From positions 71,147,790 to 71,211,789 of the forward strand of contig NC_057718.1 of NCBI RefSeq assembly GCF_004010195.1: 64,000 bases of DNA, given 5' to 3'. Of this stretch, positions 7,939 through 61,370 are shown piece after piece. The DNA comes from Chiloscyllium plagiosum. Taxonomy: Eukaryota. The notes beneath the pieces are model-generated. The model was not told the origin of the DNA. It saw nothing but the letters and a program-made list of their open reading frames with translations, and ran no database searches. The translations under genes and the position numbers were made by a program. Numbering within the stretch: position 1 is the stretch's first letter; the number at the start of each line of letters is the position of its first letter.

Positions 7939-8414
7939 AGAGTTCACTAATGTCCTTCACAGTAGGAAATCTGCCATCCTTATCTGGTCTGTCCTACATG
8001 GGACACCAGACACACTGCAAGGTGGTTGAATCTCAAGTGCCCTCTAAATGGCTGAGCAAGCTACAAAGTCTCAAAGAGATGAAACCAGACGGATCACCTG
8101 GCATCCACCTAGACATTAGAAAAGACAATGGCAGCAACAACCCGGGTTAACCCTGCAAAGTCCTCGTTACTAATATCAGGCAGCTAATGTCGAAATTGAG
8201 ATAGTTGTCTCACAATCATACTCGTGGAATCATACCTTACAGACAATGTCCCACACACCACCATCACCATCCCTGTCTCACCAGCGGACAAACCTGGCAA
8301 AGGTGGCGGCACAGTGATATACAGTCCAAAGGGAGTTCCCTTGGGAGTCCTCAACATTGACTTCAGCCCCCATGAGGTCTCATGGCTTCAGGTTAAACAT
8401 GGGCAAGGAAACAT

Positions 8415-8632
8415 GGGCAGCACAGTGACTTAATGGTTATCATTGCTGCATTACAGCGTCAGAGACCCGGGTTTGATTCCAGCTTCAGGCTGTGTGGAGT
8501 TTGCACATCCTCCCCATGTCTGCTCCGGTTTTCTCCCACAGTCCGAAGATGTGCAGGTTAGGTGAACAAGCCATGCTAAATTGCCCACAGTGTTCAGGGG
8601 TGTGTAGGCTAAGTGCATTAGTCAGGAGAAAT
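8415..8632 (+). mobile_element. HE1-type V-SINE, 3'-truncated
   Basis: tRNA-like head plus the core tgtggagtttgcacat...ctcccacagtcc. Confidence 0.85.
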
Positions 8633-9615
8633 GGCCAGCAAACAAAAAGGCAGCCTGTCCTAGCATTAAAGTATAAGATGGCTGACTGCACATAAATAAG
8701 ACAAATAGTCTGTTCTAGCCTTTAAAAGACACACAACATCTTTGAACACAGCTAGATCAGAACCATGAGTATGCCCTGATAGACATTTTTGATGTGAGTG
8801 TGTATGCAGGACAGAGAAGTGACTAATCCTAGCCTTCATTAAAGAAAGAATAATTGCCCCAGTGAATGAATAAACACTAGGTGCAGTATAAGCCTGGTCC
8901 CTAGCAGCTATCAGAACAGTGAAAATTATTTTGTTGTAAATGCCTGTTTTGCAAAAATGTTTCACAAATATTAAAATAAAAGGTTCTAGTTAAAGGTTCT
9001 TCAGAATCATAAGAGCAGCTTGCAATATAAAATAAATACATACAACCAACGCTTCGTAAAAGTATTAAAGAGAAAGAATTTAGACCTAGATGTGAAGTTA
9101 CCTGGCTTTAACAAATGACTCCTCTAATTCCTAGAACAAGATAGATTGTTCACAGTCCACTAATTACAAAGTCCTGACAGTAAGAGTAGCTGTATAATTG
9201 TGTAACTATATAATGGAAGTCCATAATAAAAATATTATAGCTAGTTAAAACAAACGTTTTTTGGTACTTCTTCATTCCTATTAATTAGGACAATAGAAAA
9301 TGTGAGCAATTGAATTTTATAAAATGAAACGTAATGAAGAACAAAATTCAAATAGTCCCTCGAGATAAACTAGCATGAGAGACACTGGAAGGAGTGTAGT
9401 AATTAACTTTGGAATGCAAATGAATAAGATGCATGGAAAGATTCCAAGGCCCAGAGATTACAGTGCCTGTTAAACACCATGGGAACCTAGGGCTATCCAT
9501 AGGAAAGCCCATCATTGATTAGGTGTCCCTTTGGATTGGGTATATGAAGTAAGTGAGTGGAACGCAGTGATCAAGTTGTATGTGATTGTTTTATATACTT
9601 TCTGTTAACAGAGAG

Positions 9616-9745
9616 GAGAAAGTGAGGACTGCAGATGCTGGAGATCAGAGCTGAAAAATGTGTTGCTGGAAAAATGCAGCAGGTCAGGCAGCATCCAACG
9701 AGCAGGAGAATCGACGTTTCGGGCATAAGCCCTTCTTCAGGAATC
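9616..9745 (-). mobile_element. PLE mini-unit with an intact HHR core (9740-9713, minus strand)
   Basis: Minus strand reads CUGAAGA-A-GGGC(UUAU)GCCC-GAAA-CGUC. TSD ctgtt(a/t)acagagag at 9602-9615 and 9746-9759. Confidence 0.88.
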
Positions 9746-11889
9746 CTGTTTACAGAGAGCATGTCACTGATTTACCTTCCAATCTAAGCTAAAGATTAAG
9801 GGAAAAATTGACTTCTCACATCAAGGCAAGATTCGAGGAAGACTCTTCGGCCCTGTCCCTGCATTAACTGGTTTCGGCTTGAGTATAAGTCTTCCACTTG
9901 CCTGAATTCAGCCTGCCTTTTGAGTCTTAGCACTCCCTCGAGGCAAAACGTTCCTACACTTACCAATCTGCCAACTGCAGATGCATCTGTCCATGACAGT
10001 ATCGCTAACAGCAACAAACGCACAGTCCTTGCGGAGACAATGAGAATAACCTTCACATTGAGAACAACCACGATCATGTTGTGTGGCACAATCACCATGT
10101 GAACTGGGAGAAACTTCGATCAGACCTAACAACCGAAGACTCGGTGCTACGAGGTGCTGTCGGCCATCGGCAGCAGCAGAATCATACTCCAGTACAATCT
10201 GTAAGCTCATGGCCCAGTATATCCCCCACTTAACCAGTACCATCAAGCCAGGGAATCGACTTTGGTTCAGCAGAAGGTGCAGGAGGTCATGCCAAGAGAA
10301 GAACCAGCCATACCTGAAGATGAGTGTCAACCTTGTAAAATCAATTGAGATTACTTGCATGCCAAACATCATAAGCAGCAAGTAATAGACAGAACTAAGC
10401 AATCCCACAAACATAAGGTCACATTTAAGCTCTGCAGTCTTGCCACATCTAATCACGAATAGTGATGGATTAAACAACTCACACAAATGTCCTCATCCTG
10501 AATGAGGGAAGAGCTCAGCACATCAGGCTTAAGCTTTCGCTGCAATCTTCAGCCAGAAATGCTGAGTGCATGATCAATCTTGGCCACCTCCTCTGTTCAC
10601 AGCATTACAGAAACGAGTCTCCAGTCAATTCAATTCACTCCATGTGATATCAAGCAACAGTTGGAGACACTAGATACTGCAAGGCTACAGGCACTGACAA
10701 CATTCCAGCAATAGTGCTTGGCTCCAAAACTTGCGGCTCCCCTAGCTAAGCTCTTCCAGTACAGTTACAATACTGGTATCTACCTGACAACATGGAAAAT
10801 TGCCCAGGTATGGTATGTACATAAAAGCAGGACAAATCCAACTTAGCCAATTAGTGCCGCATCAGTCTACTCTCAATCATCAGTAAAATAGTAGAAGGTG
10901 TCATCAACAGTGCAATTAAGCACTACCTGCTCAGCAATAACTTGCTCAGTGATGCTCAGGTTGAGTTCCGCCAGCACCCCTCCGCTCCTTCATTATAGCT
11001 AAAAGAGCTAAACTTAAAAGGTGAGGTGAGACGAACAGCCCTTGACATCAAGGCTGCATTCAATTGTGTGTGGCATTTGGGAACTTCAGAAGAAGTGGAA
11101 TCAATGGATATCAGGGGAAAACTCTCCAGTGGTTAGAGTCACACCTAACATATAGGAAGATGGTCATGGTTGTTGGAGGTCAATCATCTCAGCTCCAGGA
11201 CATTTCTGCAGGAGTTTCTCAAGGTAATGTCCAAGGCCCAAACTTCTTCAGCTATTTCGTCAATGATCTTCCCTCCATCATAAGGTCAGATGTGGGGATG
11301 CTTGTCGATGATTGCACAATGTTCAGCATCATTCGCAAGTCCCCAGATACTAAAGCAGAACATATTCAAATACAACATGATCTGGACAATATTCAGGCTC
11401 AACCTAACAAGCGGCAAGTAACATTCATGCCACACAAATGCCACATATAACGATCACCAATAACTGACAGGCAATCTAACCACGGCCCCTTGACATTCAA
11501 CAGCATAACCATCACTGTAACTCACTATCATTGACTAGAAACTTAACGGGACTCACCAGATCAATACAATAACTATAACAGCAGATCATAGGCTAGGAAT
11601 ACTGAGGCAAATAACTCACCTGATTCCACAAAACCTGTCCACCATCTACAAGGTGCCTGGATCTGTGCCGACACAAAAACACTCAAGAAGCTTGACACCA
11701 TCCAGGACAAAGCAGCTCACTTGACTGGCACTGTATCCACAAGCATCCACTCTCTCCACCTCTGAAGCTCAGTAGCAGCAGCAGTGTGTATTATCTACAA
11801 GATGCACTGCAGAAATTAACCAAAGATCCTCAGACAGCACCTTCTAAACCGATGACCATTTTCGTCTGGAAGGACAAAGGCAGCAGTGA

Positions 11890-12510: not shown

Positions 12511-12880
12511 GAGGCAATGGCCTAGTGGTATTATCACTGGACTGTCAGCCTAGAGACCTAGATAATGTCTAGTGACCAGAGTTTGAATACCGCCATTGTG
12601 ATGGTGGAATTTACATTCAATAAAAATGCCTGGAATTAGGTGTCTCACGATTACCGTGAATCCATTGTTGATTTTTAGGGAAAACCCATCTAGTTTGTTG
12701 CTTGTTGATCCATTGTTGATTGTTAGGGAAAACCTTGGAGGGAAAGAAGCTGCCACCTTTACCTGGTCTGGTGTACATTTCACTCCAGACTCTCAACAAT
12801 GTGGTCGACTCTTAACTGCCTGATGGGCAATAAATGCTGTTTGGTCAGTGATGCCCTCATCCTACAAATGAATATTAAAC
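12511..12880 (+). mobile_element. tRNA-derived SINE distinct from HE1 (central region possibly MetaSINE-like)
   Basis: A box tggcctagtgg and B-box-like gagtttgaatacc. Body acctggtctg...actccagac...gactcttaactgcc; tail gatgggcaataaatgctg. Confidence 0.8.
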
Positions 12881-13751
12881 AAAACTCCTTTGGTCATCTT
12901 TGCATCTTAAATTCCTCTGTTTGATGATCAGCAGATTTAGCCCAGCCAGATGAATGAAGTTTCAGTGGGGAAGCATTTTTGGAACAGTGGCAATAATTCT
13001 GTAAGCTTTAAGTTATTTATGGATAAAAATAAGAGTAGGTCTTGGGTGAAAATACTAAATTGGGGGAAGGCTAACTACACAATATTAGACAAAAACTGGG
13101 CAATGTCAATTAGGGATGGCTGTTTAAGGGTATATCAACATCTGTTATGTGGGAATCTTTTAAAGGCCAATTGGTTAGAGTCAGGACTGTCATGTTTCTG
13201 GGAAAGTGAGGGATGAAAATGGCAAGATTTAATAACCTCAAACAAGAGGAGAAATTATGAGCTTAGTCAGAAATAAAGAGGAAGCATACACAAAAGTTTA
13301 GGACACTGAAGACAGACAGAGCCTGCAAGGAATATAAAGAAAGTAAAAAAGAACTCAAACAGGACTCAGGAGTGCTAAAAGGAGCATAAAATTATCTTGG
13401 CAAATAGGATTAAAAAAAACCTCGAGGCTTTTTATATGTTTATAAGGAAAAAGAGGTTAGCAAGGGAAAGGGCTGTTTTGCTCAAGAAGAGAGGAGGGAA
13501 TTTATGCATGGAACCAGAAGAGATGGGTGAGGTTCTTTGTGAATTCCAATGCAAAGTGTTCATTAACAAGAAGGACACAGAGGATGGTGAGTCTAGGAAG
13601 GGGGATTTTAATATTGTGGGGCATGTTGATATATAAAAAAAAAGGTGTGTTGGGTGCTTTGTATGTATTAGGGTAGACAAATCCCCAGGACCTGATGGGA
13701 TCTATTCCAGAATACTAATGGAGGCTGGTGAGGAAACTGCTGGGGCCTTGT

Positions 13752-16409: not shown

Positions 16410-17610
16410 GTTGATGAAACATCTGAAGATAGTTGGGCCTAGGACACCACCCTGAGGAACTCCTGCAGAGTTGCCCTGGAGCTGAAATAACTGACCTCCA
16501 AAAATCAGAACCACCTTCCTGTGTGTCTGGTCTGACTATAATCACCAGAGAATTTGTCCTCTGATACCATGATTCCAGTTTTGCTAGGGGTCCTTGATGC
16601 CACACTTGGTCAAATGCAACCTTGATGTCGAGGGCAGTCACTCTCACCTCACCCCTGGAATTCAGCTCTTTGACCATGTTTGAACCAAGGCTATAATGAG
16701 GACAGAAGCAGAATGGCCCTGACAGAATGCAAACTGGGCATCACTGATCAGGTGCTGCTCAATTGCATTGTTGATGACATCTTTATCACTTTATTGATGA
16801 GAGTAGGCTGTTGTTGCGGTAATTGGCTGGGTTGGATCTGTCCAGGACATAGCTGGGCAATTTTCCACATTGTCAGGTAGATGCCAATGTTGTAGCTATA
16901 CTGAAAGAGCTTGGTTGTATGGGAGTGGCAGTTTCTGGAATACAAGTCTTCAGTAATATTGCCGGAATGTTGTCAGAACCCGTGGTGTTTGCAGTATAGA
17001 GTGTCTCCAACCATTTTTTGATATCATGTGAAGTGAATCAAATTAAATGAAGACTGGTATCTGTAACGCAGGGGACCACTGGAGGAGCCAGGATGGATCA
17101 TGCACTCAACATTTCTGGCTGAAGATTGCTCAGAAAGCTTCAGACTTATCTTTCACACTGATGTGCTGGGCTCTTCCATCTTGAGGATGGGAATATTTGC
17201 AGAGCCTCCTCCTCCAGTCATTTATTTAAGTGTCCACCACCATTTGCAACTGGATGTGGCAGGACTGCAGAACTTAGATCTGATCCATTGGTTGCGGGAT
17301 TGATTAGCTCTATCACATGCTGCTTATTCTATTTGGCATGCAAGTAGTCCTGTTTGGTGACTTCACCAGGTTGACACCTTGTCTTTAGGAATGCGTTGTG
17401 CTGCCCTTCTGCACTCTCCATCGAACCAGAGTTAATTCCTTGGCTTGACGGTACTGAATAAGTGGAGGAAATGCTGCGCCTTGAGATTATAGATTATGCT
17501 GGAGTACAGTTCTGCTGCTACTGATGGCCCACAGCTGATGAAGGTTATTCTCAATGTGAAGACTTCATCTTCACAAGGACTCTGCAGTGGTCATTCTTAC
17601 CAATATTGTC
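16410..17610 (-). mobile_element. Internal fragment of the SINE-headed LINE family
   Basis: KELNSRGEVRVTALDIKVAFDQVWHQG, KLFQYSYNIGIYLTMWKIAQ. Confidence 0.85.
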
Positions 17611-17954
17611 ATAGAGTATTTTTAGAACATAGATAGATTGAATCTTATTTGGCAAGGGGAATCAAGAATGATTAGGGGCAGCATTCTCTCTCTCGACTTG
17701 GAGCATAGAACGTAACCGCGCAGTACAGGCTCTTTGGCCCTTGATGTTGTGCCGACCTGTGAAATTAAGCTGATGCTCATCTAACCTATACTATTCCATT
17801 ATTATCCATATGTGTATCCATGTAAATGCCCTTCAAGTTGGCGTGTCTACTACTGTTGCAGGAGGGCCATTCCACGCCCCCAATACTCTGAGTGAAGAGT
17901 ATCTGATACCTGTCCTAAATCTATTACCCCTCGTGTTAGCCTTCACAATCAGAG

Positions 17955-20110
17955 GATTTGATGTCGTCCTCCTCCTCAACTATCTGAAACACTTGCCATA
18001 TGTGGTCTCTCCACAGAAGATTTCTATTGCACAACATCAGGTAATGTTTCTGGGATTCATCCTGTCTACTGACTCATGCTCTCTTGAACAGAGCCGCGTC
18101 ACACTTATTGTCAACTTCCCAGTTCCAACCACAAAACAAGTCCGCAAGTGGCTGGGCATGGTCAACTTCTGCCGACAATGGATTCCAAATGCAACTCTCC
18201 TCATTAAGGTGTTGACCCCATTCACCTCTCATGAAGGGACCTTCAATCTCTCCTTAGAGAGGAAGCAAGCTTTCAATGAACTTAAGCATGCCTTGTTACA
18301 AGCTCCAGCTTTGGGAAGACCACTCTGTGACAGACCCTTCCAACTGTACTGCACCATCTTGGATGACTGTGCCACTTCAGTTCTCACTCAACTGCTTGGA
18401 GATCGACACCACCCAGTGACCTACTTTTCTACTAAACTTGACCCTGTTGCCTTAAGACATCTCTGCTGCACTCAAATCCTAACAGTTATTTATTTTAGTC
18501 TACAATCTGCAGAAAATCTTACACTACGGCAAGACATTGCCATCTACAGTTCTCATGCCGTAATTGCCCTGTTAGGACACCTACAAATTCAACATTTGAC
18601 TGCCGCTCGCCAAAACCCATTATGAGATTTACCTCCTCAACAATCCTCGACTGACCTTCAAGAATTGTACTACTATTAATCTCGCTGATTTCCTTATACA
18701 TCCTCCTTCACCCTTATCCGCTCTTGATCATGATTGTCTTCTTCTCATTAACGAGGATCTTCAAGTTCATCCAGACCTCTCTGACGCCCCTATCTCAGGC
18801 CCTGATATCAATATGTTCACTGATGGTAGTTCCTTTACTGACCATACAGGTACTCGCCTTTCAGGCTATGAGATAGTTAATGACTATGGCTGTGTCCTGG
18901 AATCTGCTGCCTTTGAGACTCCTTTTTTTGCCCAGCAAGCTGAGCTTTTAGCACTTAGTCGTGCTTGCATCCTCGACACTCGTCTTCATGCTAACATTTA
19001 TACTGATTCCCAATATGCTTTTGGGGTTGTGCAGGACTTTGGACAACTCTGGGAGGAACAGAGGATTTTTGACATCATCTAGTACTCCAATTTCCCAGCG
19101 CCAGCTTGTCTGAGACCTTTTAACCACGCTCTTATTCCCAAAGCAGGTTTCTGTTATCAAATGTGCTGCCCATACTACTGACCAATCCCCTGTTGACATC
19201 GCGCTGCTGATGAGGCTGCAAAACTAGCCTCTCGCAACCGTCTTATGATTGTGCCTAAAATGACAAGCCAGCTTGAAATCTCTGACAGGAGTCAGTTGAC
19301 CACGGTTAAACTAATGCCAACCATTCAAGATGTTGTTACCTTACAAGGGGACGCCTCTGATTCTGAAAGGCAGATGTGGTCCAAAGCAGGCTGTTATTGT
19401 AATCTTGTTACTAAATTATGGACCACTCCAGCTGGACAGATTTGTATGTTTGCTGATACTCTTGCTCTGTGGGTAGTTGATTGTCTTCATAATGCTACAC
19501 AGTGGTGCTCGCTCTACACCTGACCTCCTATTGACCACCTGTTGGCACCCTCACCTCCAGCAGGTAGCTCAATGTGTCAGTGATAGAACACAACCCAGGC
19601 AAGGGTATACCTTGCCCGGTGGTCAAAATGCCCCTCCCTCAAGGACCTTTCCAAACCCTTCAACTTGACCTCATCGAGTTAGAGGTGTCAAAACTATATG
19701 TATGTTTTGGTTATTGTTGATGTCTTTTCTAAATGGGTTGAAGCTACTACCAAAACTGTTGTGAGTATCCTACTTAAGGAGATTATTCCCCACTTTGGCA
19801 TTCCCTATTGCCTGTCTTCTGACAATGGTCCTCATTTTGTTGGCGAAATAAATGAGGAATTATGCTTTCACTTCAGTATCCGCTGCCAACTCCATTGTGC
19901 TTATTGTCCACACGCAGCAGGACTTGTGGAGCATTGTATCCAGACTCCGAAAACCAAACTTTGGTTTGTCTCTGGCACCACCTTATTTTTAATTTTTTCT
20001 GCCTTATTTAATTGGATTATAGGCCATCCCTTCACTTATTATTCAGCTGTTGACACTTTACTCACACCATCTGACACTTTTGATCATCTGCAGAGACTTA
20101 TTATTTGACA
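17955..20110 (+). mobile_element. Endogenous retrovirus pol fragment (class I, gamma/epsilon-like): RT C-terminus, tether, RNase H, integrase; decayed, no LTR seen
   Basis: WLGMVNFCRQWIPN, LLQAPALGRP, YFSTKLDPVA; FTDGSS, AQQAELLALSRAC, NIYTDSQYAFGVVQDFGQLW; LVIVDVFSKWVEA, EIIPHFGIP, SSDNGPHF, AGLVE. Confidence 0.92.
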
Positions 20111-22374: not shown

Positions 22375-22615
22375 GGTGGCAATGGTGCAGCAGTGATAAT
22401 GTAGAGCACTAGTAATCTAGAGGTCTAGGCTAATAGTCTGATGGATGAGTTCAAATCCATTCCAGCAGCTAGTAGAATTTAAATTCAGTTGATAAAATCT
22501 CGAATTGAAAACTAGTCTCAGAGATACTGACCATGAAATTATTGTTAACTATCTTAAAAACTTAGCTGGCTTACAAATGCCCTTGCGGGGAGAAAATCTG
22601 CCATTCATTACCAGG
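22375..22615 (+). mobile_element. 5' half of a tRNA-derived SINE (12511 family); the 3' half is at 27706-27855
   Basis: gagttcaaatcc B box and aatctgccatt...accaggttt. Resumes after the LINE as ggtttgacc...tgactccagg...gactcttaactgc. Confidence 0.7.
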
Positions 22616-23461
22616 TTTTTTTTTTAATTCACTAGCTGGCCAGCATTTATTGCCCATCCATAGTTGCCCCTTCAGAAGGTGGTGGCCAGCTGCCTTCGTG
22701 AACTGCTGCAGTCCACCAGCTGTGGGTTGACCCATAATGCCATCAGGGTGGGAATTTCAGGATTTTTACACAGCGACAGTGAAGGAACGCTGATATATTT
22801 CCAAGTCAGGATGGTGAGTGGCTTGGAGTGGAACTTGAAAGATGGTGTTCCCACGTATCTGTTACCCATGTTCCTCTAGATGAAAGTGGTCATGGGTTTG
22901 GAAGATACTGTCTGAGGATCTTTAGTGAATATCTGCAGTGCACAATGTAGACAGGACACACTGCTACTACTGAGCATCAGTGGCGGAGGGAGTGGATGCT
23001 TATGGATACAGTGCTGATCAAACAGGCTGCTTTGTCCTCGATGGTGTCAAACTTAGAGTCTTGTTGGGGCTGCACTCATCCAGGCAAGTGGGGAATATTC
23101 CATCACACTCCTGACTTGTAGATGGTGGACAGGCATTGGGGAGACAGAAGGTAAGTTATTCACTGCAGTATTCCTGGTCTCTGACCTGCTCTTGCAGCCA
23201 CTATATTTATGTGGCAAGTCCACTTCAGTTTCTGATCAATGATAACTCTCAGGATGTTGATAGAATGGGATTCAGTTGAATGTCAAGGGGCAGTGGTCGG
23301 ATTGCCTTTTGGAAATGGTCATAGCCTAGCATTTGTGTGGCACAAATATTACTTGTCACTTGTCAGCCCAAACCTGGATATTGTCCAGATCTTGTAGCAA
23401 TTAAAGATGGGCTGCTTCAGAGTCGGAGTCATCATGAATGGTGCGAAACATTGTACAATCA

Positions 23462-24120
23462 ATCATTGTGCCTCTCCTGCAACCACTACTCCCAATGTGG
23501 TCTTCTCTACATCAGTGAGACAAAAATGTTCGCTTAGGGAACATTTCAACAAACTTCTCAGCCAGTCCTCTAAGGCCAGTCTGACCTCCTGCTCATAATC
23601 CATTTTAATTTCCCTTCCCACTCCCACATGTCCATCTTCAGCCTCCTCCATTGCCACAGTAAATCAGACCGCAAGTTAAAGGAACACCACCTCATTTTCT
23701 GCCTGGGGAGCCTACAGCCTGGAGGCCTCAACAAAAAGTTCTCTAATTTCAAGTAACTTTCTCACCCACCCCCCGACTCCCTATCCAGCCCAACTTCCTC
23801 CTTTTGATTCCAACTACTGATCCTTCCTTCCACTACCTAGTGGATTCATCCCTCCCATCTACCAATCAGGTCATACCCACCATGTGTTCATCTATCACCA
23901 CTTCACCATTCTGCCATTCTCCCCACCCAAAACCCTCCCTCCTCCTTTTATCTAAAGCTCCTCCTACCCCCAACTTCATTCCTGAAGAATACATATAAAG
24001 AAGTCATACCAGAAACGTCAACTTCTCCATCTCCTGATGCTGTCTGGCTTCCAGCTATATTCTTCTAGCCTCCTGCTTTCCTACTTTAGATTACAGCACC
24101 TGCAGGGTTTTTTTGCCTCT
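23462..24120 (+). mobile_element. PLE 3' fragment: GIY-YIG endonuclease end plus tail with decayed HHR
   Basis: SQCGLLYISETK, RKLKEHHLIFCLGSLQPGGLN. TSD cattgt(a/g)caatca at 23449-23461 and 24121-24133. Confidence 0.85.
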
Positions 24121-24286
24121 CATTGTGCAATCATTGGCAAACATTCCCACTTCTGACCTTATGATGGAGAAAAGGTGAAGCAGGTGAAAATGGTTGGGCA
24201 TAGGACACCCTGCAGAACTCCTGCAGAGATGCCCTGGAGCAGAGATGTCGAATCTCCAACAACCACAACCATCCTCCTCTGTGTCA

Positions 24287-25091
24287 TCGTTCCAACACAG
24301 GTTAAACCCCTCTGCTAATTTAAACCAGCCATACAAATAAGATTCACGTCGTGTTGTAATGTGTTAAAATTGGAGAGGCAAAGACTCTTTAAGTCCAACA
24401 GAGAATATTAAAACCAACAACTATTTACAACTCCTTTCTCTTAAACCTCTCTCTTACCTCCCACTCTACAACACTAGCCTGATAAAAAAAATCCTGATTA
24501 AGATTTATAAAAAAAATTTCAAAACCAGTCAGCTGTCGAATCTTCTCTTTTTATCTTCTTCTGCAGGTTTCCTCTGTCACCTTTTTGATGTCCTGCTGCG
24601 CAAACGTTTTGTAGTCAGGTACCTTTCCGAGAGCCTTTCTGCTGGCAGTCTGTACTTGTTGGTGGCTTGGCAGTTGCATTCCTGAAGAAGGGCCTGTTCC
24701 CTGGATGCTGCCTGACCTGCTGTGCTGTTCCAGCAATAAAGTTTCAACTTTGATCTCCAGCACCTGCAGACCTCACTTTCTCCCCGGCTTGGCAGTTCTC
24801 CCCTAACTGTTCAAAATGTCTGGTTTTATACCCCAAAACATTGGATCGTTTCATTGGTTTTAATATTATCAAAATACTAAATTCAAATTTGATTGGATTC
24901 TGATATCTTGGGGCATAATTTAAACTGATTGGCCGAATTTGTTTTTGTATTCCATAGCAACACTGCTGTACTACTGGTTTTGACCAAGTGTTACATTGCT
25001 ACCTTGTTCAGAACACTGTATGCTGTGTCAGGCAGTCCTTGCTAGCTTTTCAACTCTCTTCAAGGTACAGTACTTCCATACCTTCATAACA
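24287..25091 (-). mobile_element. Gypsy-type solo LTR
   Basis: Minus strand starts TGTTATGAAGgtatggaagtactgtacctt, like 2271. 4-bp TSD gtca at 24283-24286 and 25092-25095. Confidence 0.88.
24676..24785 (+). mobile_element. PLE mini-unit with a partly deleted HHR, inside the LTR
   Basis: cctgaagaagggc...gatgctgcctgacctgctg...ctcactttctcc. TSD ggcttggcagtt at 24664-24675 and 24786-24797. Confidence 0.85.
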
Positions 25092-26664
25092 GTCAGGTAT
25101 GAGCGCAACTACTGGAGAGTTTGCCCTCTGATACCTGCTGATTCCAGTTTTGCTAAGGCTCCTTGATGCCACACTTAATTGAATGCCACCTTGATGCCAA
25201 GGGTTGTCACACTCACCTCATCTCTGAAATTCAGTTCTTTTATCCAGGTTTGGATCAAGGCTGTAATGAGATCAGGAGCTGAGTGGCCCTGACGGAACAC
25301 AAACTGGGCATCATTGAATAGGTCAGTGCTTAGCAGGTGCTGCTTGACAGTCCTGTTGATGACCCCTTCCATCACTTTACTGATGATCGGTAATAGACTG
25401 ACAGGGTGGTAATTGGCCAGGTTGGATGTATCCAGCTTTTTATGTTGAGGACATACTTGGGCAGTTTTCCACATTGTCGGATAGATGCCAGTGTTGTGAC
25501 TGTACTGGAACAGCAAGTTTTGGAGCACAAGTCCTCAGTACTAATGCCAGAATGTTGTCATGGCCTGTAGCCTTTGCAGTATCCAGTGTCCCCAGCTGGT
25601 CATTGATATCACATCGAGTGAATCGAATTGGCTGAAGACTGGTTTCTACAATGCTGTCACCACTGCAGGTGGCCAAGATGGATCATGCACTCGGCACTTC
25701 TGGCTGAAGACTGCAATGAAAGCCTCAGCCTCATCTTTTGCAGTTATGTGCTGGGCTCTTACATAATTGAAGATAGGGATATTTACTTGTGCAGCCTCCT
25801 TCTAGTCAGATGTTTAATCGTTAACTACCATTCACAACTGGATGTGTCAGGATTGCTGAGCTTATATCTGATCTGGTGCTTGTGGGATTACTTAGTTCTA
25901 TCACTTGCTGTTTATGTTGTTTGGTATGCAAGTCGTCCAGTTTGGTGGCTTCACCAGGCTTGCACCTCATCTTCAGGTATGGTGGATACTGTTCCTGGCA
26001 TTCCCTCCTGGACTCTCTGTTGAACCAGGGTTGATCCCCTGGCTCGATGGTAATGGTTGAGCAAGGGACATGCTGGGCCACAAGTTTACAGATTGTAGAG
26101 TACAATTCTGTTGTTCATGGCACACCTCACCACTCAGATGCCCAGCCGAGAGTTGCTAAACCTGTTTAAAGGCTGTCCCACTTAGCACAGTGATAGCGCC
26201 ACACAACATGATGGTGGTTATTTTCAACGTCAAGGCCGGAATTGGTCTCCACAAGGGCTCTGTGGTGGTCACTCTTATTTGGGCACGGACGGATGCATCT
26301 GCAGCTAGCAGATTAGCAAGGATGAAGTCAAGTATGTTTTTCCCTCTTGGTGGTTTCCTCATCACCTGCAGCAGACTCAGTCTAGCAGCTATGTCCTTTT
26401 AGGACCCAACCAATTCAATTAGTAATGCCAAACCACTCTTGATGGTGGACATTGAAATCCTCCACCCAGAATACATTTTGTGCCCTTGCCAACCTCTGTG
26501 CTCTCGCTAAGCATTGTATAACATGGAAAAGTACCGATTCATTGGCAGAGGGGGATATGATTCCATGAGTATGACTATTTCAGGCTGTTTCTTGATTAGT
26601 CTGTAAGTTGTGGTAATCAGGAGGTTTCCTTGCCTGTGTTTAACCTGAAGCCATGAGACTGTAA

Positions 26665-27090
26665 GTTATAGAGTTATAGAGATGTACAGCACGGAAACAG
26701 ACTCTGCCCAGTCCAACTGTCCAGGCCGACCAGATATCCCAACCCAATCTAGTCCCACCTGATAGTACAAGGCCCATATCCCTCGAAACCCTTCCTATTC
26801 ATATATCCATCCAGATGACTTTTAAACGTTGCAATGGACTAGCCTCCATCATTTCCTCTGACAGCTCATTCCATACATGTACCACCCTCTGCATAAAAGT
26901 TGCCCCTTAGATCCCTTTTATATCTTTCCCCTCTCACCCTAAACCTATGCCCTTCAGTTCTGGACTTCCCCCACCCCAGGGAAGAGACTTTGACTATTTA
27001 TCCTCTCCATGCCCCTCACGATCTTATAAACCTTCCAACAGGAAGTTCCTTGTAATTTTTTTCTGAACCCTTTCAAGTTTCCCAACATCC
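26665..27090 (-). mobile_element. CR1 3' end fragment
   Basis: atagagtt tail repeats; same 3' UTR as 52181-52478 and 51339-51542. Confidence 0.8.
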
Positions 27091-29912
27091 TTAGTCAATG
27101 TTGAGGACTTCCAGGGCAACTTCCTCGAGACTGTAATATCATTGTGCTACCACCTATTTTAGCTCTATCCTGCCGGTGAGACAGAACACACCCAGGCATG
27201 GTGATGGTGGCGTCTGGCGTATTGTCTGCAAGATATGATTCCATGAGTATGACTATTTCAGGCTGTTTCTTGATTAGTCTGTAAGTTAGCTCTCCCAATT
27301 TTGGCACAAGCCCACAGATGTCACAAAGGAGGACTTTCCAGGGTCAACAGGGATGTTTCTGTTGTTATCTTTTCTGGTGCCTAAGCCAATGCCAGTTGAT
27401 CTGTCCGGTTTCATTTCTTTGAGACTTGGTAGGGATTGATACAACTGAATGGCTTGCTAGGCCACTTCACAGGGCAATTGAGAGTCAATCACACATTGCT
27501 GCGGGTCTGCAGTCACAAGGAGGCCAGGGCAGGTGAGAATGGCAGATTGCCTTCCCTGAAGGATATCAGTGAACCAGATGGGGTTTTTCTGATCGTCAAC
27601 AATGATTCTTAATTCCAGATTTTTTGTGTTTTCTTTTCAATTCAAATTTCACCATCTGCCATGTTGGGTTTAGTACCTGGGTCTCTGGATTAATAGTCTA
27701 GAAATGGTTTGACCAATATGTGACTCCAGGTCCACAATAGAGCGAATGACTCTTAACTGCTCTCTGAAATAGCAAACCAGTCAGTTCAATAGCCATAATC
27801 AATGGGTACATGTGGCCTTGACAATGATGCACAAATCTCAAAGTATATTAAAAAATCATTCCTACTTCTGTAGTTAACCATCATTATCTGGGATTCCACT
27901 GAAAATACCTTTCTTTAAAGAAAGTTTTGGCAGTATAGAACTTAAGCATTTGTCGAAAAATATACTTCCTTTTTCCCTTGCACTCTCAGGAAAGTTGGCA
28001 AGAAATACCAATGTAAAGAGAAAATATTCGCATTGAGAAGGAAGTGCGAATGGTTTGGCAAGTGAATTCTGATTGCTTGTTAGTAACACATGAGTTAGTA
28101 ACTAATATTTACTGCCAAACTTTGTTTAAATTTTATGATCTTGTAGGTAGATTCTGTTCAGTTCATTTTTTGGGGCAATGCGTTCACATGGAATATAACA
28201 TCACCACCTAGTTCATAGAATTGAAATAGACTCAACGCAGGCATATGATATTTCTCAGTCTACAAAAAACAGGGTCCCATGTAAGAATGAATGTGACTTC
28301 CAGTATGCACAACTGCACTGAGATAGTGTGTTATAGGCTCTCTTTATTAACTCACTCACCAGCTCACTATATTCATTAATACCGGATTCCCATTCATTCA
28401 TTCATACACAATCCTTTATTTACGATAACAGGGTTTAATCTACTCATTCATAAAACCAGAGTTCTGCACTATCCACAGTTAAAAACAATCCTTTGAAACC
28501 CATGACCGCATTTCCACACCTTGTCAGCATACAGAACAATACCATCCTCATCAAGTCTCCACTAAACATTATAATATGAATCACAACCCTTACCAACCAT
28601 CTCCTGGATCAATTAAGTACCAATTAATTACTTTTTAGCTCGGCCATTACCCCATTTAAGAAACCAACTGACAAAACAGTGCTTGCATGAAACTGCATGA
28701 AAGAAAGAAACTCATGCCAGCAAATCTTAAATAAATCTCACCACACAGCTGCAGTAATCAGTTTAATATCCTTTATTATTTTGTTATGATTTCTAACTTA
28801 TTCACACCACATAGGTCTAGTAGTTTATACTAATATTTAAAAGACAAAAGAACTGACATCTCTTGATTATGTATGCAAACTGGACAGACACCCTTAATCC
28901 CACCAGAAGTAACAGCCAGCACTTAGCCACAAGTTTTTAACCCATCTCCTGTCTCCCAGGTCAGAAGTCCTTCAAACCTTCATGACTTATAGAATGGAAC
29001 TTTAATATATGTAAGAACTGTGTACAAAGCGGCTCGTGTAAGAACTGTATTTCAGGATTATTTTGCCGCCTTGAACTTGCGCTGTGATTGTTGAATGAAG
29101 AGGCTATTTTCGTCACTCACCAATTTTGATCGTTATTTGAACACGACCCCACTACACCATACTGTAAGCCAAGTGAACCCTAAATAGGTTGTCAGTGTAA
29201 TCGTTCACACACTCAGGATTGCTTAGCAAATGCTGTCTAGCCTCAAATCACTTACATTCCGCACAGAGTTTTCAGTTTTGCAGTACAGCGATAGGTTAGG
29301 TACATTCAGGACCTTGATTATGGCAAACAGCTGAAAGATTATGCTGTTTCATACAATCCACCATTCTTTGGAATAACCAGTCTAGATATTGGCACTAAGT
29401 TGAAGGTAGTGGCTGGGATGTCAAAGAAGCCAGTTGCTTCTTCTTGGGAAGTTTTAACATTCCAGTAGTATTAGAGCCAAATCCATCCAGACAAGTGAAG
29501 AGTATTCCAAACTTCTAACCTGTGATGTGATGGACAGCAGACAAGCTTTGACTGTCAGGTGGTGAGTTTCTCACACACTTAACCACAGTATTTATATAGA
29601 TAGTCCAACTCAGTATCTGGTAATGAAAAACCTGCAAGATGATGACTTCGTGAACAGGATATGGGCTTCACTGGATAGGCCAGCATTTATTGCCCATCCC
29701 TAAATGTCCAAAGGGGAGTTAAGAGACAAACATGTTGCTGCAATTCAGCAAAGGTTCAGCACAAAAGGGAGATTGTTAGATTCTCTTTTGTTGGAGATGG
29801 TCATTGCTTGGCAACTGTGGCACAAATATTACTTGCCACTTATCAGCTCAAACCTGAATATTGTTCATATCTTGATGTGTATGGACAGGGATTACTTCAT
29901 TGTCCACGGAGT

Positions 29913-30645: not shown

Positions 30646-31776
30646 CCTCCGGTGAAGCACTGGCGATATGGCCCGCTTTTTATTTGTGTGTTTATGTTTT
30701 TTGAGTTGGTGATGTAATTTCCTGTGGTGGTCATTTCCTGTTCTTTTTCTCAGGGGGTGGTAATTGGTATCAAAGTCAATGTGTTTCTTGATAGATGTCT
30801 GGTTGGAAGGCCATGCTCCTAGGAATTCTCGCGCACGCCTCCATTTGGCTTGTCCGAGGATGGATGTGTTGTCCCAGTCGAAGTGGTGTCCTTCCTCATC
30901 TGTATGTAAACATACTAGTGAGAGTGGGTCATGCCTTTTGGTGGCTAAACAACAACGAACTGCCATTCCTACATGTTGCAATAGAACAAACAGTCAATGG
31001 TGAACTTCAAACCAGCGTCTACAGGAAAAACAACACATACAGGCCAAATACTTAACTACAGAAGCGATCAACCCAACACCCAAAAAAGAGCTGCATTAGA
31101 ACATTATTTCAATGAGCCACCACACACTGCAGCAGAGAGGAACTATGAAGAGCAGAGGAAAATCACCTATGCAGCGTATTCAAAAAGATTAGGCACCCAA
31201 TGAACACAGTTCATCGATTTCTCAGCAACAAACCCAAAAAAGCGGACAAAACATGTCCAGAAACCTTAGCCACTCTCCCCAACATCAAAGACACTTTGGA
31301 AATGACTGCCAGACTACTCTGACCCCTTGGCATCATGGTAGCCCACAAAGCCACCAACATACTAATACAGCAGCTAATGAACTTGAAAGATGCTACACAG
31401 ACAACAAGCAAAACTAAAGGCATTTACAAAATACCATGCAAGAACTGTAACAAACACTACATTGGACATACAGGCAGAAAACTAGCCACCAGGATACATG
31501 AACATCAACTAGCCACAAAAAGACATGACCCACTCTCACTGATATCTTTACATACAGATGAGGAAGGACACCACTTCAACTGGGACAACGCATCCATCCT
31601 AGGACAAATGAAGACAGGTGCAGGAATTCCTAGAAGCATGGTATTCCAATTGGAACTTTATCAACAAACACCTTGACCACCCCCTGAGAAAAAGAACAGG
31701 AAATGACATCACCAACCAAGGAAACCTAAACATTCAAATAAAAGGTGGGCCATATCACCAGTGCTTCACCAGAGGC

Positions 31777-33423: not shown

Positions 33424-36400
33424 AGGGAAAAATGTAGGAACACGTGGCTGCAGGGCTGGTGTAAGAGGGAGAGCTTCAGATATGTGATTGATTGGGATAC
33501 TTTCAAGGAAAGTAGTACGGGTTGCACCTGAACTGGAGGTGCACTAATATCCTGGACGGGAGGTTTGCTAGAGCTCTTCAGGAGGGTTTAAACTAGATTG
33601 GTAAGGGGTGGAACCTGAGCTACAGATCAGATGATGGAGTAGGTAGTGAATAGCCAGATATAGCATGCAGAGAGTCTATGAGGAAGGACAGGCACTTGAT
33701 AGGGCAAAGGTGTAGTCAGTGTGATGGACTGAAGTGTGTATATTTTAATGCAAGTAGTATCAGGAATAAGGGTGACGAACTCAGAGCATGGGTCAGTACT
33801 TGGAACTATGATGGTGTGGCCATTACGAAGACTCAGATATCAAAGGGGCAGGAATGGTCATTGGCTATTCCAAGATTTAGATGTTTCAAAAGTGGGTGTC
33901 GTTAAAGTGGTGGAGGAGTGGCATTGCTAATCAGGGATACTATCACAGCTGTAGAAAGGGAGATTGTAGAGGCGGGTTTGCCTACAGAGTCAAAATGGGT
34001 GGACGTCAGAAATAGGAAAGAAGCAGTCACTTTATTGGGAGTTAACTGCAGTTGCCCCAATAGCAGCAGAGACATTGAGAAGCAGATCGGAAGGCAGATT
34101 TTGCAAAGGTGCAGAAGTAACAGAGTTGTTGTCATGGGTGACTTTAACTTCCCTAATATTGTTTGCAATCTACTTAGTTCAAATAGCTTGAATGGAGCAG
34201 TTTTTGTCAGCTGTGTCCAGGAAGGGTTCCTGACACATGTCTATCGGCCGACTAGAGGGGAGACCATATTGGATTTAGTGCTTGGCAATGAACTAGACTA
34301 GGTGTCAGATCTCTCGATGGGACAACATTTTGGTGACAGTAATCACAACTCCACGACCTTTACCTATATCCATGGAGAAGGACAGGAGCAAACTGTATGG
34401 GAAAATATTTAATTGGGGGGAGGGGGAACTACAATGCTATCAGGCAGGAACTGGGGCACCTAAATTGGGAACAGATGTTCTCAGGAAAATGCACAACAGA
34501 AATGTAGAGGTTGTTCAGGAAGCACCTGCTGATCGTCCTGTCCCAAGGAAGGGATGGTAGCTTTAAGGAACCTTGGGTGACAAGGAATGTAGAACATCTA
34601 GTCAAGAGAAAGAAAGAAACTTAAGGTTGAGGAGGCAAGGCTTTAGAAGGTTACAAAGGTCACCAGGAAGGAACTGAAGAACGGACTTAGGTGAGCTAGA
34701 AGGCGGCATGACAAAGCTTTAGTGGGTAGATTAAGGAAAACCCTAAGGCTTTCTCCACTTATGTGAGGAACAAGAGGATGGCCAGATTGAGGTGGGGCTA
34801 ATCAAGGATAATGGAGGGAACTTGTGCCTGGAGTCGGAGGAAGTAGGGGATGTTCTCAATAATACTTTGCTTCAGTATTCACAACCGAGAGGGACTTTAA
34901 TGTTTCGTGACAGCATGAACCACACTGATTTGCTTAACAGTTTGATGTTAGGAAGTAGGATGTGACGAAAATTTTGAAAAACACAAGGATAGATGAATCC
35001 CTTTGGCCAGATGTGGTTTACACTCGGTCACTACAGGGAGTGAAGGAAGAGATTGCTGCACCTTTGACGATGATCTTTGCATTCTCACCATAAACTGGAG
35101 TACTGCCAGTGGCAAATGTTATTCCCTTGTTCAAGAAAAGGATTCGGGATAATCCTGGGAATTACAGACCACTCAGTCTTATGTCATTGGTGGACAGATT
35201 GTTGGAGAGGATCCTGACAGACAGGATTTAGGATTATGCGAAAAACCATAGTTTGATTAGAGATAGTCAGCATGACTTTGAGAGGGACAGGTCGTGCCTC
35301 ACAAACCTGATTCAATTCTTTGAGGATGTGACGAAACATGTTAATGAAGGTCGAACATTGGATGTGGTGCATGTGGATTTTAGCTAGGCGTTTGATAAGA
35401 GTCTCCATGGTAGGCTCATTCAAAAAATAAAGAGGCATGGGATATAGGGAAACCTGTCTGCCTGGATACAGAATTGGCTGGCCCATACAAGACAGAGGGT
35501 GATGGTTGATGGAAAGTATTCAGCCTGGAGCTCGGTGACCAGTGCTGTTCCACAGGGATCGGTTCTGGGATCTCTGCTCATTGTGATTTTTATAAATGAC
35601 TTGGATGAGGAAGTGGAAGGGTGGGTTAGTAAATGTGATGATAATACAAAGGTTGGTGGAGTGGTGGATAGTGTGGAAAAACTGTTGTAGATTGCATCGG
35701 GACATTGACAGGATGCAGAACTGGGCTGAGAAGTGGCAGATGGTGTTCCACCCAGAAAAGTGTGAAGTCATTCACATTAGAAGGTCGAATTTGAATTCGG
35801 GTTAAAGGCAGGATTCTTGGCAGTGTGGAGGAACAGAAGGACCTTGGGGTCCATGTCCATAGATCCCTCAAAGTTGCCATCCAAGTTCATAGAGTTGTTA
35901 AGATGTATGGTGTGTTGGCTTTCATTAGCAGGAGGAATTGAGCTTAAGAGCTGCAAGGTAATGCTGCAGCTCAATAGAGCTCTGGTTAAACCACACTTAG
36001 AATATTTGTATTCAGTTCTGGTCACCTCATTATAGGAAGGATGTCAACCTAAAGGGTACAGAGGAGATCTACCAGGATACTCTCTGGAGTGGAGGGCATG
36101 TCCTGTGAATAATGGTTGAGGGAGCTAGGGCTTTTCTCATTGGAGCAAAGAAGGATGAGAGGCCACATGATAGAGGTGTACTAGATGAAGAGAGGCATAG
36201 ATAGAGTGAATAGCCAAAGACTTTTTCCCATGGCAGAAATATCGATCATAAGGGGGGCACAGTGGCTCAGTGGTTAGCACTGCTGCCTCACAGCACCAGG
36301 GACCTGGGCTCAATTCCATCCTTAGGCGCCTGTCTGGAATTTGCACATTCTCCTTGTGTCTGTATGGGTTTCCCCCAGGTGCTGTGGTTTCCGCCCACAA

Positions 36401-51338: not shown

Positions 51339-51542
51339 GAGAGTCATACAGCACACAAACAGACGCTTCGGCCCGACCCGTCCGTGCTGACCCAGATATC
51401 CCAACCCAATCTAGTCCCACCTGCCAGCACCCGGCCCATGTCCCTCCAAACCCTTCCTATCCATATACCAATCCAAATGCCTCTTAAATGCTGTAATTGT
51501 ACCAGCCCCCACCACATCCTCTGGCAGCTCATTCCATACACG
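51339..51542 (-). mobile_element. CR1 3' UTR fragment running into the gap
   Basis: Reverse complement of the 52270-52478 type tail. Confidence 0.85.
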
Positions 51543-51889: not shown

Positions 51890-52890
51890 CATGAACCCAC
51901 GGTTAAGGCACTCTTCACGGGTTCAGAACTTGGCTCAGTTCTGCTTGGCTATTCTATCCCAAAAGGACTACACATTACAACACAGACTACACTGAGAGGC
52001 TCTGCCATCGCACCTCTCGCACACTCCTCAACCAACGCGTACACCAGACGTGCCAACCTTGAAATCAACATATAGTCCATATTCTCAGTTTGCATTCAGG
52101 GGACTAACTAAGAGACACTGCCAAGCAGATGAGGTAACTGAACTACACCACGTACACGCACACCAAGAACAGAAAACTGGTAAGGTCCTAGGGAGAATTG
52201 CTGAACAAAGAGACCTTGGAGGAGAAAGACATAAAAGAGACGTAAGGGGCAACGTTTTCACAGAGGATGGTACGTGTATGGAATGAGCTGCCAGAGGATG
52301 TGGTGGAGGCAACTGCAACATTTAAGAGGCATTTGGATGGGTATATGAATAGGAAGGGTTTGGAGGGATATGGACTGGGTGCTGGCAGGTGGGACTAGAT
52401 TAGGTTGGGATATCTGGTCGGCATGGACAGGTTAGACCGGAGGGTCTGTTTCCATGCTGTACATCTCTATGACTCTATGGAGAAATTTGGCATCACACTA
52501 GCAGTCACCAAGCCTACAGGGTAATACCACAGTGAACTCCATTGTCAACTTGTCTCACCAATTTTGTCTGGTTGAAGGGTGTAAAGTTCTCAGCCGAGGA
52601 CTCAACTTACTCCCCACAACCAACATGGACCCCATTGGTCTCGGGTAAGACAAAAATAAATTCATTTGGCAAATCAGGCTCCAGGAATTCTTCCACAACC
52701 CACAACACGTCAGCAGCAAGCCCAATGAGATAACCAATGAACTGCAACAGTCGATAGAGAGATCTGCAGTACAGCAACCAAAGAAACAACAGTCGAATTG
52801 GACCCCTCTGGAAGGCCTGAACAGGATACCCAACAGACATCACAAATCTGAAACTTTCAACAACAATTCTCTTTCCGGATCCTCCGCTCC
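51890..52890 (+). mobile_element. PLE ORF N-terminal fragment interrupted by a CR1 tail (52181-52478)
   Basis: SIVNLS...KVLSRGLNYSPT-like PLE N-terminal motif; SNWTP. Confidence 0.6.
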
Positions 52891-60465: not shown

Positions 60466-61370
60466 GTGAGTTCATGGAATGCCCTGCCAGTAGCAGTGGT
60501 GGACTCTCCCTCTTTATGGGCATTTAAACGGGCATTGGATAGGCATATGGAGGATAGTGGGCTAGTGTAGGTTAGGTGGGCTTGGATCGGCGCAACATCG
60601 AGGGCCAAAGGGCCTGTACTGCGCTGTATTTTTCTACGTTCTAAAATCTAAGCTTTGGTCAAGTTAACAGCAAATGTTTACTGTTTCCTCTCCAGATGCC
60701 AGACCTGTCAGTATTTCAGTATTATCTGTTTTTGTGCCATATCAAACCTTGGTTCACAGAAGAGGCTGTTAAATTATAACTTGTAACAAGCATCTGGTTG
60801 GGAATGTGAATAGGTTGAGTTTAGAGGGATATGGGCCAAATGCTGGCAAACAGGACTAGATTAATTTAGGATATCTGGTTAGCATGGATGAGTTGGACTG
60901 AACGGTTAGTTTCCATGTTATACATCGCTAAAATGCAAACTTGCTTTTGGATAGAGTTCTAAAAGAAATATTTTCTTGATTGAACTTAAAATGCACACAA
61001 GATATCAACAAATAGAATCTTGCTCTATGGACAATGGTCTGGAACTTACAAACTGGCACCTGACAAAATTGAAACAAAGGCTGCCAAGTTGTTCACAGTC
61101 TAAGTGAGTCATGAATGCTCTTCAGGTCATCATGCTATCTCTAACTTTTGTCTCTCTCATTCAATTCTCTCAGGGCAATTCAAAGTGATCAAAGAAAGGC
61201 CAATGCCACACTTATTCAAAAATCAAATTTCAAAAAACACACACACACAAAATCATTAAGTCCAGAAAATTATCAGATCAGAGAATGCAAAATTCCTTTG
61301 CAACACCTTGATTTACTAGAGAAGACACCAATTGTTGAGAAAAGTTCAAGTTTTGTACTTCTGTACTTAC

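Follow-up and report, generated by a model that had tools for sequence, protein, structure and literature searches.

A SINE-type tRNA-like head and tail on the elasmobranch Zenon LINE: a possible internal promoter and a possible source of a SINE

Elasmobranch Zenon is a family of long interspersed nuclear elements (LINEs) of the CR1 group, described as devoid of the first open reading frame (ORF1) and as the sole CR1-group elements with a poly-A tail, with consensus lengths of 2886–3314 bp (Stuart et al. 2026 and Supplementary Table 2 therein, PMC13343379). Here we analyze a minus-strand copy of this family found in a stretch of 64,000 nt from the genome of Chiloscyllium plagiosum (RefSeq assembly GCF_004010195.1, contig NC_057718.1, positions 71,147,790 to 71,211,789 of the forward strand; this whole stretch is referred to as the window, and all coordinates are given within it), which begins inside the tRNA-related head of a short interspersed nuclear element (SINE), continues with the body of that SINE and ends with its tail. 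The published element and the one analyzed here are the same, with only one open reading frame (ORF), no ORF1, an A-rich tail and a total length near 3.2–3.3 kb. In the main text of the published description the words 'tRNA' and 'promoter' do not occur, 'SINE' appears a single time, among the references, and the head, the relationship to a SINE and the depletion of T-runs are not discussed. The Zenon family and its consensuses are already known; our literature searches found no account of a SINE-type RNA polymerase III head on this autonomous element, of the origin of its SINE from its two ends, or of the avoidance of T-runs in its coding strand.

Several described systems share some of these features. 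Bov-tA, SINE2-1_EC, SINE2_Gav, CoeSINE4, WALLSI and other SINEs likewise contain sequence from both the 5' part and the 3' tail of their LINE (Kojima 2018, PMC5786205), and internal deletion is consistent with their structure too; however, in those cases the 5' donors are only RTE and Vingi elements rather than a CR1-group element such as Zenon, and the small-RNA head is thought to join a headless bipartite LINE by a template switch, whereas here the autonomous LINE itself bears the head. SacSINE1 and LmeSINE1, which are tRNA-headed DeuSINEs occurring in sharks, skate, chimaera and coelacanth and were compared here by their description, resemble the SINE studied here in having A and B boxes within a tRNA-related head, a long conserved body, a LINE-like tail, a similar length and a presence in whale shark and skate, but the tail donor given in print is L2 (L2-2_CM), not Zenon (Luchetti et al. 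2017, PMC5499810). The k-mer searches that addressed an identity with Deu or SacSINE1 gave no match in the supplements of PMC4824008 (one file aside) and PMC11481361, or in the papers searched. The TRIMp3 elements (Cassandra, Helenus and Ajax; Kojima 2024, PMC10886601) also carry a polymerase III-type promoter module on a retroelement other than a SINE, but these are non-coding, non-autonomous LTR (long terminal repeat) elements of 311–1263 bp with small-RNA-derived promoters, whereas Zenon comprises 3.3 kb and encodes its own enzymes. The only tRNA-headed LINE that we encountered in print is the subject of a passing remark by Kojima, concerning a sequence in RTE-1_DAn that is tRNA-like (PMC5786205), to which supplements and subscription papers beyond those consulted may add further cases.

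The window LINE extends from 27701 to 22615 on the minus strand and consists of part of a SINE-type head, the SINE body, an endonuclease with no ORF1 in front of it, and the SINE tail (Table 1). As proposed in the first-pass annotation of the window, its 5' end (27701-27470) is collinear with a stand-alone plus-strand SINE (12511-12885). The aligned blocks comprise an anticodon-arm piece, GATGGTG(G/A)AATTT, CATTGTTGA...AAACCCATCT and CTGCCA...GACTCT(T/C)AA(C/T)TGCC, after which the two sequences diverge, the LINE into CTGTGAAGTGGCCTAGCAAGCC and the SINE into TGATGGGCAATAAATGCTG. The similarity is visible in alignments only; with the SINE as query and the window as target, plain blastn (word size 9, E-value 1e-3) found nothing but the SINE itself. 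The endonuclease of the apurinic type (motif ICGLVPKLGELTYRLIKKQPEIVILMESYL, open frame 27343-27095) follows about 130–150 nt past the point of divergence. Pfam searches with four short window fragments, including the decayed endonuclease piece, gave no match, but the homologous frame of a better-kept genomic copy (L002) matched Exo_endo_phos_2 above the cut-off (E-value 4.3e-9, 36.7 bits) as well as Exo_endo_phos, the latter from profile position 18. These matches indicate that the endonuclease begins there and that no ORF1 fits between it and the SINE-shared part, as had been suggested from the window sequence alone.

Sequence comparison also confirmed that the 3' end of the LINE is the SINE tail, with GATGGGCAATAAATGCTGGCC at 22658-22638 and a run of 11 A at 22625-22615; the previously annotated span of 22616-27701 is therefore right as to its start at 27701, but its other end lies at 22615. 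To place the boundaries between the LINE and its inserts, we determined how 42 other copies cover the sequence and where the ends of their alignments cluster. Removal of three nested inserts and one 56-bp duplicate leaves the LINE pieces 27701-27084, 26662-26610, 26553-25092, 24286-24121 and 23461-22615, i.e. about 3.15 kb, in good agreement with the earlier estimate of about 3.1 kb. The A box is missing, as already remarked, because the copy is truncated at about position 30 of the head, and the B box is degraded, as a deletion of about 24 nt has removed most of it and of the variable arm. No target-site duplications were evident by eye for the window copy or for a few SINE copies. The window LINE is a 5'-truncated, insert-riddled, dead relic of the elasmobranch Zenon family.

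The architecture of the 5' end recurs throughout the genome. A search of the C. plagiosum genome (3.56 Gb) with the query 27230-27480, of which about 10 nt are common with the SINE, yielded 4594 first-look candidates, and all of the best 40, which were scored, span the junction between the body and the LINE-only sequence (81–85% identity). Among 29 fetched copies, the window copy excluded, the upstream homology stops 255–286 nt before the anchor in 15, 200–254 nt before it in 5 and within 200 nt of it in 9. The long copies all begin at the first base of the head, with GGG(G/T)AGGCAATGGCCTAGTGGTATTA..., which is also the start point of the SINE copies, and the shorter, variable 5' ends represent the usual 5' truncation of LINEs. 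No alternative shared 5' sequence or other 5' untranslated region was present among the 29 copies; the sole longer upstream match is between L005 and L006, a pair of duplicates. The second Zenon copy noticed earlier in the window, on the plus strand (7942-8362, continuing to 11876), shares this body-to-LINE junction, and the two copies did not arise from one another by local duplication. A full-length Zenon thus comprises a head of about 94 nt, a body of about 190 nt, a leader of about 150 nt, a single endonuclease/reverse-transcriptase ORF, and a tail made of AATAAA and an A-run.

The LINE family is already known, being the elasmobranch Zenon LINE, whose consensuses are given in the supplement of PMC13343379. 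A 26-mer from the LINE-only leader (L027) and a 29-mer from the body (L030) occur exactly in six rows of Supplementary Table 2 of that paper, all of them elasmobranch Zenon. Comparison of the first 400 nt of each published consensus, to which all our comparisons with that source refer, revealed that seven of them open with the same head and body and the same leader (CarCar, HypSab, RhiTyp, ScyCan and SquAca-1 to -3, which according to the name codes represent great white shark, Atlantic stingray, whale shark, catshark and three subfamilies of spiny dogfish), while the coelacanth and hagfish Zenon consensuses start differently and without the head. As judged by eye, RhiTyp_Zenon-1 matches the copies analyzed here nearly base for base, CpG decay aside. 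A body block of about 150 nt (AAAAACCCATCTGGTTCACTAATGTCCTT...CAGCAATGTGGTTGACTCTTAA.TGCCCTCTGAAATGGCCTAGCAAGCCA) is almost invariant across the five shark and ray species, while the head and the stretch immediately following the head vary, and therefore no other non-coding part of the element is as well conserved as the body. The two published hallmarks of the family are also present: a poly-A tail is represented by the 11-A run of the window copy and by A-rich or T-then-A ends in 29 other 3' ends, and a single ORF by the endonuclease matches of L002, the reverse transcriptase of L043 (see below) and the spacing of about 150 nt between the SINE-shared part and the endonuclease. Our first guess, that the element belongs to the RTE clade, was dropped in view of the match to the published Zenon consensuses and of the k-mers.

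A search with a reverse-transcriptase fragment gave 129,581 first-look candidates and 149 scored matches (the window's own excluded) of 63–80% identity, among which the longest open frame comprises 484 aa (L043; RVT_1, E-value 1.8e-24). These numbers and identities indicate that Zenon is very abundant and old in the genome of C. plagiosum. In other species, Supplementary Table 3 of PMC13343379 gives 3/612 intact ORF2 for the stingray family and 1/1419 for that of whale shark. The protein search returned 211 matches with uninformative names and at best 39% identity; a fragment of a horn-shark gene model showed 71% identity over 15% of the query.

The majority reading of the head, GGGGAGGCAA TGGCCTAGTGG, contains at nt 11-21 an A box (TGGCCTAGTGG) that fits perfectly the canonical sequence TRGCNNAGTGG, and at nt 74-84 a B box, GGTTTGAATCC, whose departures from the canonical B-box sequence are due to CpG decay; GGTT(T/C)(G/A)AATCC starts 63 nt after the start of the A box. 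An A box with at most one mismatch was found in 5/15 LINE heads and 13/30 SINE heads, and such a B box in 7/15 and 9/30, respectively, while neither occurs in the flank control (0/15 in both cases). With a relaxed threshold, ARAGORN recognized in the SINE majority head (nt 7-94) a cloverleaf of 88 nt that has GTT as its anticodon and a long variable arm, but made no such call for the LINE majority head, whose anticodon stem contains one mismatch. In three published elasmobranch Zenon consensuses (PMC13343379) the B box is intact (GGTTCGAATCC). Such a composition supports the prediction that the head is tRNA-like and carries polymerase III boxes, and argues, if weakly, for its origin as a copy of a tRNA gene.

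The stand-alone SINE at 12511-12885 possesses internal A and B boxes at a tRNA-like spacing, and alignments bear out the earlier suspicion that it is composed of the two ends of the LINE, with the first approximately 290 nt and the last approximately 70 nt of Zenon joined together. Its tail of about 60–75 nt (GGGCAATAAATGCTGGCC...GAATGAAT) is common with the Zenon 3' ends, which read ..CCTTCTCAAGGGGCAACTAGGGA(C/T)GGGCAATAAATGCTGGCCCAGCCAGCGA.GCCCACATCCCACAAAATGAATAAATAAAAAA. The body-to-tail junction of the window SINE is spanned by all of the 40 scored matches (the best 40 of 1799 first-look candidates). The SINE copies consist of the head and body up to GACTCTTAACTGCCCTC, followed by TGGGCAATAAATGCTGGCCTAGCCAGTGATGCCCTCATCC..GAATGAAT and then by T and A runs; however, in three of them (L060, L065 and L069) the part retained from the LINE 3' end is longer by about 14 bases (..CCCTCTGGGCAATTAG.GATGGGCAAT) and several others differ slightly, which indicates at least two forms of the junction. 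The LINE sequence at the 5' break point, CCCTCTGAA, resembles that at the 3' break point, CCTTCTCAAG. This microhomology suits a deletion or a jump of the reverse transcriptase, and equally a switch from LINE RNA to SINE RNA in the opposite direction. Capture of the SINE front by the LINE and excision of the SINE from the LINE are mutually compatible and could both have happened, one after the other. The first-pass annotation overstates the rule that SINEs normally have nothing but the 3' tail in common with their LINE, as 5' parts of RTE and Vingi elements are known in SINE bodies (PMC5786205). In the body of the window SINE about 30 nt are also repeated in tandem (12655-12735; ccattgttgatt(t/g)ttagggaaaacc...), a feature missing from the other 29 SINE copies.

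The heads of the LINE and of the SINE can be told apart. Comparison of LINE-linked (n=20) and SINE (n=30) copies over 298 shared columns revealed diagnostic differences outside both search queries, for example A in 20/20 LINE-linked copies vs G in 21/30 SINE copies, or C in 16/20 vs A in 24/30. On a tree of the heads, the LINE/SINE label changes 7 times compared to 15.9 times after shuffling, and none of 500 shuffles gave a value as low. Together, the diagnostic columns and the clustering of the labels indicate that the heads travel with the LINE lineage. The tree is unrooted, has no outgroup and is star-like (0/47 inner branches starred), and for this reason it cannot show the direction of origin.

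The coding strand of Zenon is poor in T-runs, the signal at which polymerase III would be expected to terminate. The majority-rule reading of 43 aligned copies, used for counts only (3191 columns, T content 20.9%), contains no run of four or more T (T4+) and 5 runs of three or more (T3+), as compared to 49 A3+, 43 C3+ and 37 G3+ runs. From base content alone 4.8 T4+ runs are expected (P(0) = 0.006). Under synonymous-codon shuffling T3+ runs are significantly depleted (4 seen vs 12.3 expected, P about 0.0005), whereas A4+ runs are as frequent as expected (10 vs 11.1); phenylalanine is encoded by TTT 2 times and by TTC 15 times. The decayed Zenon copies still exhibit 0.75 T4+ runs per kb vs 2.11 expected, whereas a control LINE family (that of the endonuclease at 33906-34298), likewise measured on decayed copies, exhibits 4.5 T4+ runs per kb of the coding strand vs 3.15 expected (56 kb), i.e. 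no depletion. In the published consensuses, inspected by eye, TTTT is absent from all seven elasmobranch sequences but occurs at least 6 times and once in those of hagfish and 4 times in that of coelacanth. This depletion fits transcription by RNA polymerase III, without being a proof of it. The 3' ends of both the LINE (L076-L104) and the SINE (L046-L074) read either ...GAATAAATAAAAAA or ...GAAT(T)4-7(A)n, and a T4+ run directly before the terminal A-run was counted by eye in 7/29 LINE and 12/29 SINE ends; in the form with the T-run, a polymerase III terminator would lie precisely where the element ends.

Based on these features, we propose that the head may be the internal promoter of the LINE itself, from which RNA polymerase III would make the full 3.3-kb coding RNA, a tentative reading of the sequence to which we give somewhat less than an even chance. 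Polymerase III would start at the head and read through the T-run-free element to the tail; the transcript would then be polyadenylated, or terminated at the terminal T/A-rich stretch, and its ORF would be translated without a cap-dependent AUG start. An internal deletion of the LINE, arising in the DNA or through a jump of the reverse transcriptase where CCCTCTGAA and CCTTCTCAAG share microhomology, would then yield the SINE in one step. Taken as a whole, a LINE made by polymerase III, with a coding strand purged of terminator T-runs to permit transcription and with a single internal deletion giving rise to a ready-made SINE, is conceivable, if on the less probable side. A number of observations weigh against transcription by polymerase III. 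The fetched loci are a few with the highest scores among thousands of candidates, and the counts given above do not therefore describe a random sample. ARAGORN with default settings found no tRNA in 36/36 loci, in either majority head or in the window, and Rfam found none in 20/20 loci at E-values up to 1. The absence of T4+ runs is not significant under a dinucleotide null model (1.9 expected, P = 0.16) or a synonymous-codon null model (2844 coding bases, 1.77 expected, P = 0.14). Most 3' ends lack a T-run and carry instead AATAAA and an A-run, the usual polyadenylation signal of polymerase II. As the Zenon copies are old (63–80% identity, longest frame 484 aa), their function has to be deduced from relics. 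Uncapped RNA would be poorly translated, and we know of no translated polymerase III transcript of 3.3 kb. It is also the accepted view that LINEs are products of polymerase II and that length is limited where polymerase III is used (PMC10886601).

Alternatively, Zenon could be transcribed by polymerase II, the head and body having been captured once from an older SINE, by a switch of the reverse transcriptase from LINE RNA to SINE RNA at the CCCTCTG microhomology, and retained as a 5' untranslated region for another reason, e.g. as a polymerase II promoter or a TFIIIC-bound insulator, for RNA stability or the assembly of the ribonucleoprotein, or by mere hitch-hiking; the depletion of T-runs would then reflect codon or composition bias, or avoidance of A/T-rich signals. 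We regard this as the main rival, with a chance only slightly below that of transcription by polymerase III. The AATAAA and A-run tail and the lack of significance of the T4 absence under the dinucleotide and codon nulls speak in its favor, as do the headless Zenon consensuses of coelacanth and hagfish, which suggest that the head was gained within the clade. Moreover, similar tRNA-headed SINEs have been reported in chimaera and coelacanth (SacSINE1-CM and LmeSINE1; PMC5499810), and chimaera has no Zenon according to Stuart et al. (PMC13343379), so the SINE front would be older, provided that those SINEs are homologous to the Zenon SINE. On the other hand, capture and retention under polymerase II do not readily explain why the common 5' end lies 10 nt before the A box, exactly at the start site expected of a type-2 polymerase III promoter, or why the B box is intact in published consensuses of lineages whose heads otherwise differ. 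The depletion of T3+ runs also exceeds the effects of codon usage and protein sequence, A-runs are not depleted, and the control LINE family shows no depletion of T-runs.

Could the heads have been acquired anew by each copy? In such a scenario the LINE RNA would be headless and the reverse transcriptase would switch, copy by copy, to the abundant SINE RNA within the shared body, whose approximately 190 nt offer a site for the switch; template switching is indeed an accepted route of module exchange among SINEs (PMC5786205, PMC5499810). However, the LINE-linked heads and bodies have diagnostic bases of their own, also outside the search queries, the LINE/SINE labels are clustered on the tree, and the LINE consensus of each species has its own head variant in the published set, which makes this scenario very improbable. 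Chance nesting, i.e. insertion of a SINE beside a truncated LINE, or one local duplication, might be suspected in a window so dense in nested repeats, but it is refuted by the conservation of the junction in 40/40 scored matches on many contigs, by the single 5' end reached by 15/29 copies and by the presence of the same junction in the published consensuses of five species, and we consider its probability negligible; the junction is a family trait, as the first-pass annotation had held.

Table 1. Zenon copies of the window, their nested inserts and the SINE, with the evidence for their boundaries
Feature	Coordinates	Strand	Evidence
tRNA-like head remnant, anticodon-arm piece ctagactattaatccag kept	27656..27701	-	alignment with 14 LINE-linked heads and the SINE; majority head, ARAGORN cloverleaf
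SINE-shared body (GATGGTGAAATTTGAATT ... GACTCTCAATTGCC)	27470..27655	-	alignment; block also in six published elasmobranch Zenon consensuses
LINE-only 5' leader with out-of-frame ATG (aagaaatgaaacc)	27344..27469	-	26-mer match to elasmobranch Zenon rows only
N-terminal part of apurinic-type endonuclease (ICGLVPKLGELTYRLIKKQPEIVILMESYL...)	27084..27343	-	open frame; Pfam matches of L002; ends of high-scoring segment pairs at 27102-27084
Nested insert 1, unrelated repeat	26663..27083	-	coverage drop, breakpoints; also at about 52219-52478, 51347-51540, 60762-60933
Short LINE piece (SWLQVKHRQGNLLITT) after insert 1	26610..26662	-	sequence, open frame, coverage
56-bp patch, 100% identical to 27232-27287, out of order inside endonuclease	26554..26609	-	self-match
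LINE part B: rest of endonuclease, linker, first half of reverse transcriptase	25092..26553	-	tblastn of homologues P0001-P0003, breakpoints
Nested insert 2, unrelated repeats	24287..25091	-	zero LINE coverage, breakpoints
LINE part C: reverse transcriptase around FADDC motif	24121..24286	-	open frame, coverage, breakpoints
Nested insert 3, unrelated sequence	23462..24120	-	zero LINE coverage, breakpoints
LINE part D: end of reverse transcriptase and C-terminal region	22700..23461	-	coverage, breakpoints, tblastn
3' tail common with SINE (GGGCAACTATGGATGGGCAATAAATGCTGGCC...GAATT and 11 A)	22615..22699	-	about 25 nt deleted relative to other copies
Second Zenon LINE copy, 5'-truncated inside body	7942..11876	+	pieces 7942-8362, 9959-11134, 11148-11321, 11309-11876
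Third Zenon LINE fragment, reverse transcriptase region	16415..17517	-	window self-matches, breakpoints
Stand-alone SINE: A box, decayed B box, body, junction AACTGCC/TGATGGGCAATAAATG, tail	12511..12885	+	alignment

Within part B of the window copy RVT_1 was matched at 25178-25534, below the curated cut-off (E-value 7.3e-4). The 56-bp patch (26609-26554) is a copy of 27287-27232, part of the endonuclease start located about 620 bp upstream of it in the LINE, and the local sequence ACATACAGAC resembles the start of the patch, ACTTACAGAC. Perfect identity over 56 bp, in a copy diverged from its relatives by about 18%, points to templated repair or conversion of recent date, or else to an artefact of the assembly. 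As concerns the start of translation, no in-frame ATG is present between the upstream stop and the N-terminus of the endonuclease in the majority-rule reading, in the window (27344-27469), in L002 and L011 or, by eye, in the published consensuses; the short frame that starts at the only ATG nearby (AAGAAATGAAAC) is not in phase with that of the endonuclease.

Other elements were also noticed in the window. The second Zenon copy is interrupted after 8412 by a SINE-like insert (8413-8600, plus strand), which is a different tRNA-headed SINE (gggcagcacagtgacttaatggttatcattgctgc...gtggagtttgcacatcctcccc...), by its resemblance possibly of the V-SINE/HE1 type. The plus-strand segment 33906-34298 (loci L105-L139) represents a second, unrelated LINE family with an endonuclease (Exo_endo_phos_2), the one used as the control above; its search gave 87,393 first-look candidates, with open frames of up to about 900–1400 aa in the genome. 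Pieces of an LTR-retrotransposon pol region (RT_RNaseH_2, RNase_H and the integrase core) with broken frames are located at 17774-20105 (plus strand), and an open frame at 31323-31673 (plus strand) matches the GIY-YIG nuclease just above the cut-off (E-value 9.6e-5), which we take as a hint of a Penelope-like element.

LINEs are usually regarded as polymerase II genes, and SINEs as polymerase III parasites that copy only the tail of a LINE. In Zenon the SINE-type promoter module resides on the autonomous element itself and is kept in the published consensuses of five shark and ray species. If polymerase III indeed makes the Zenon RNA, this RNA would be a rare example of a long, translated polymerase III transcript, the family would illustrate a one-step route from a LINE to a SINE, and it would provide a concrete candidate for the source of a long, strongly conserved SINE body. 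Even if Zenon is transcribed by polymerase II, a LINE of the CR1 group joins the RTE and Vingi elements described by Kojima (PMC5786205) in sharing its 5' parts with SINE bodies.

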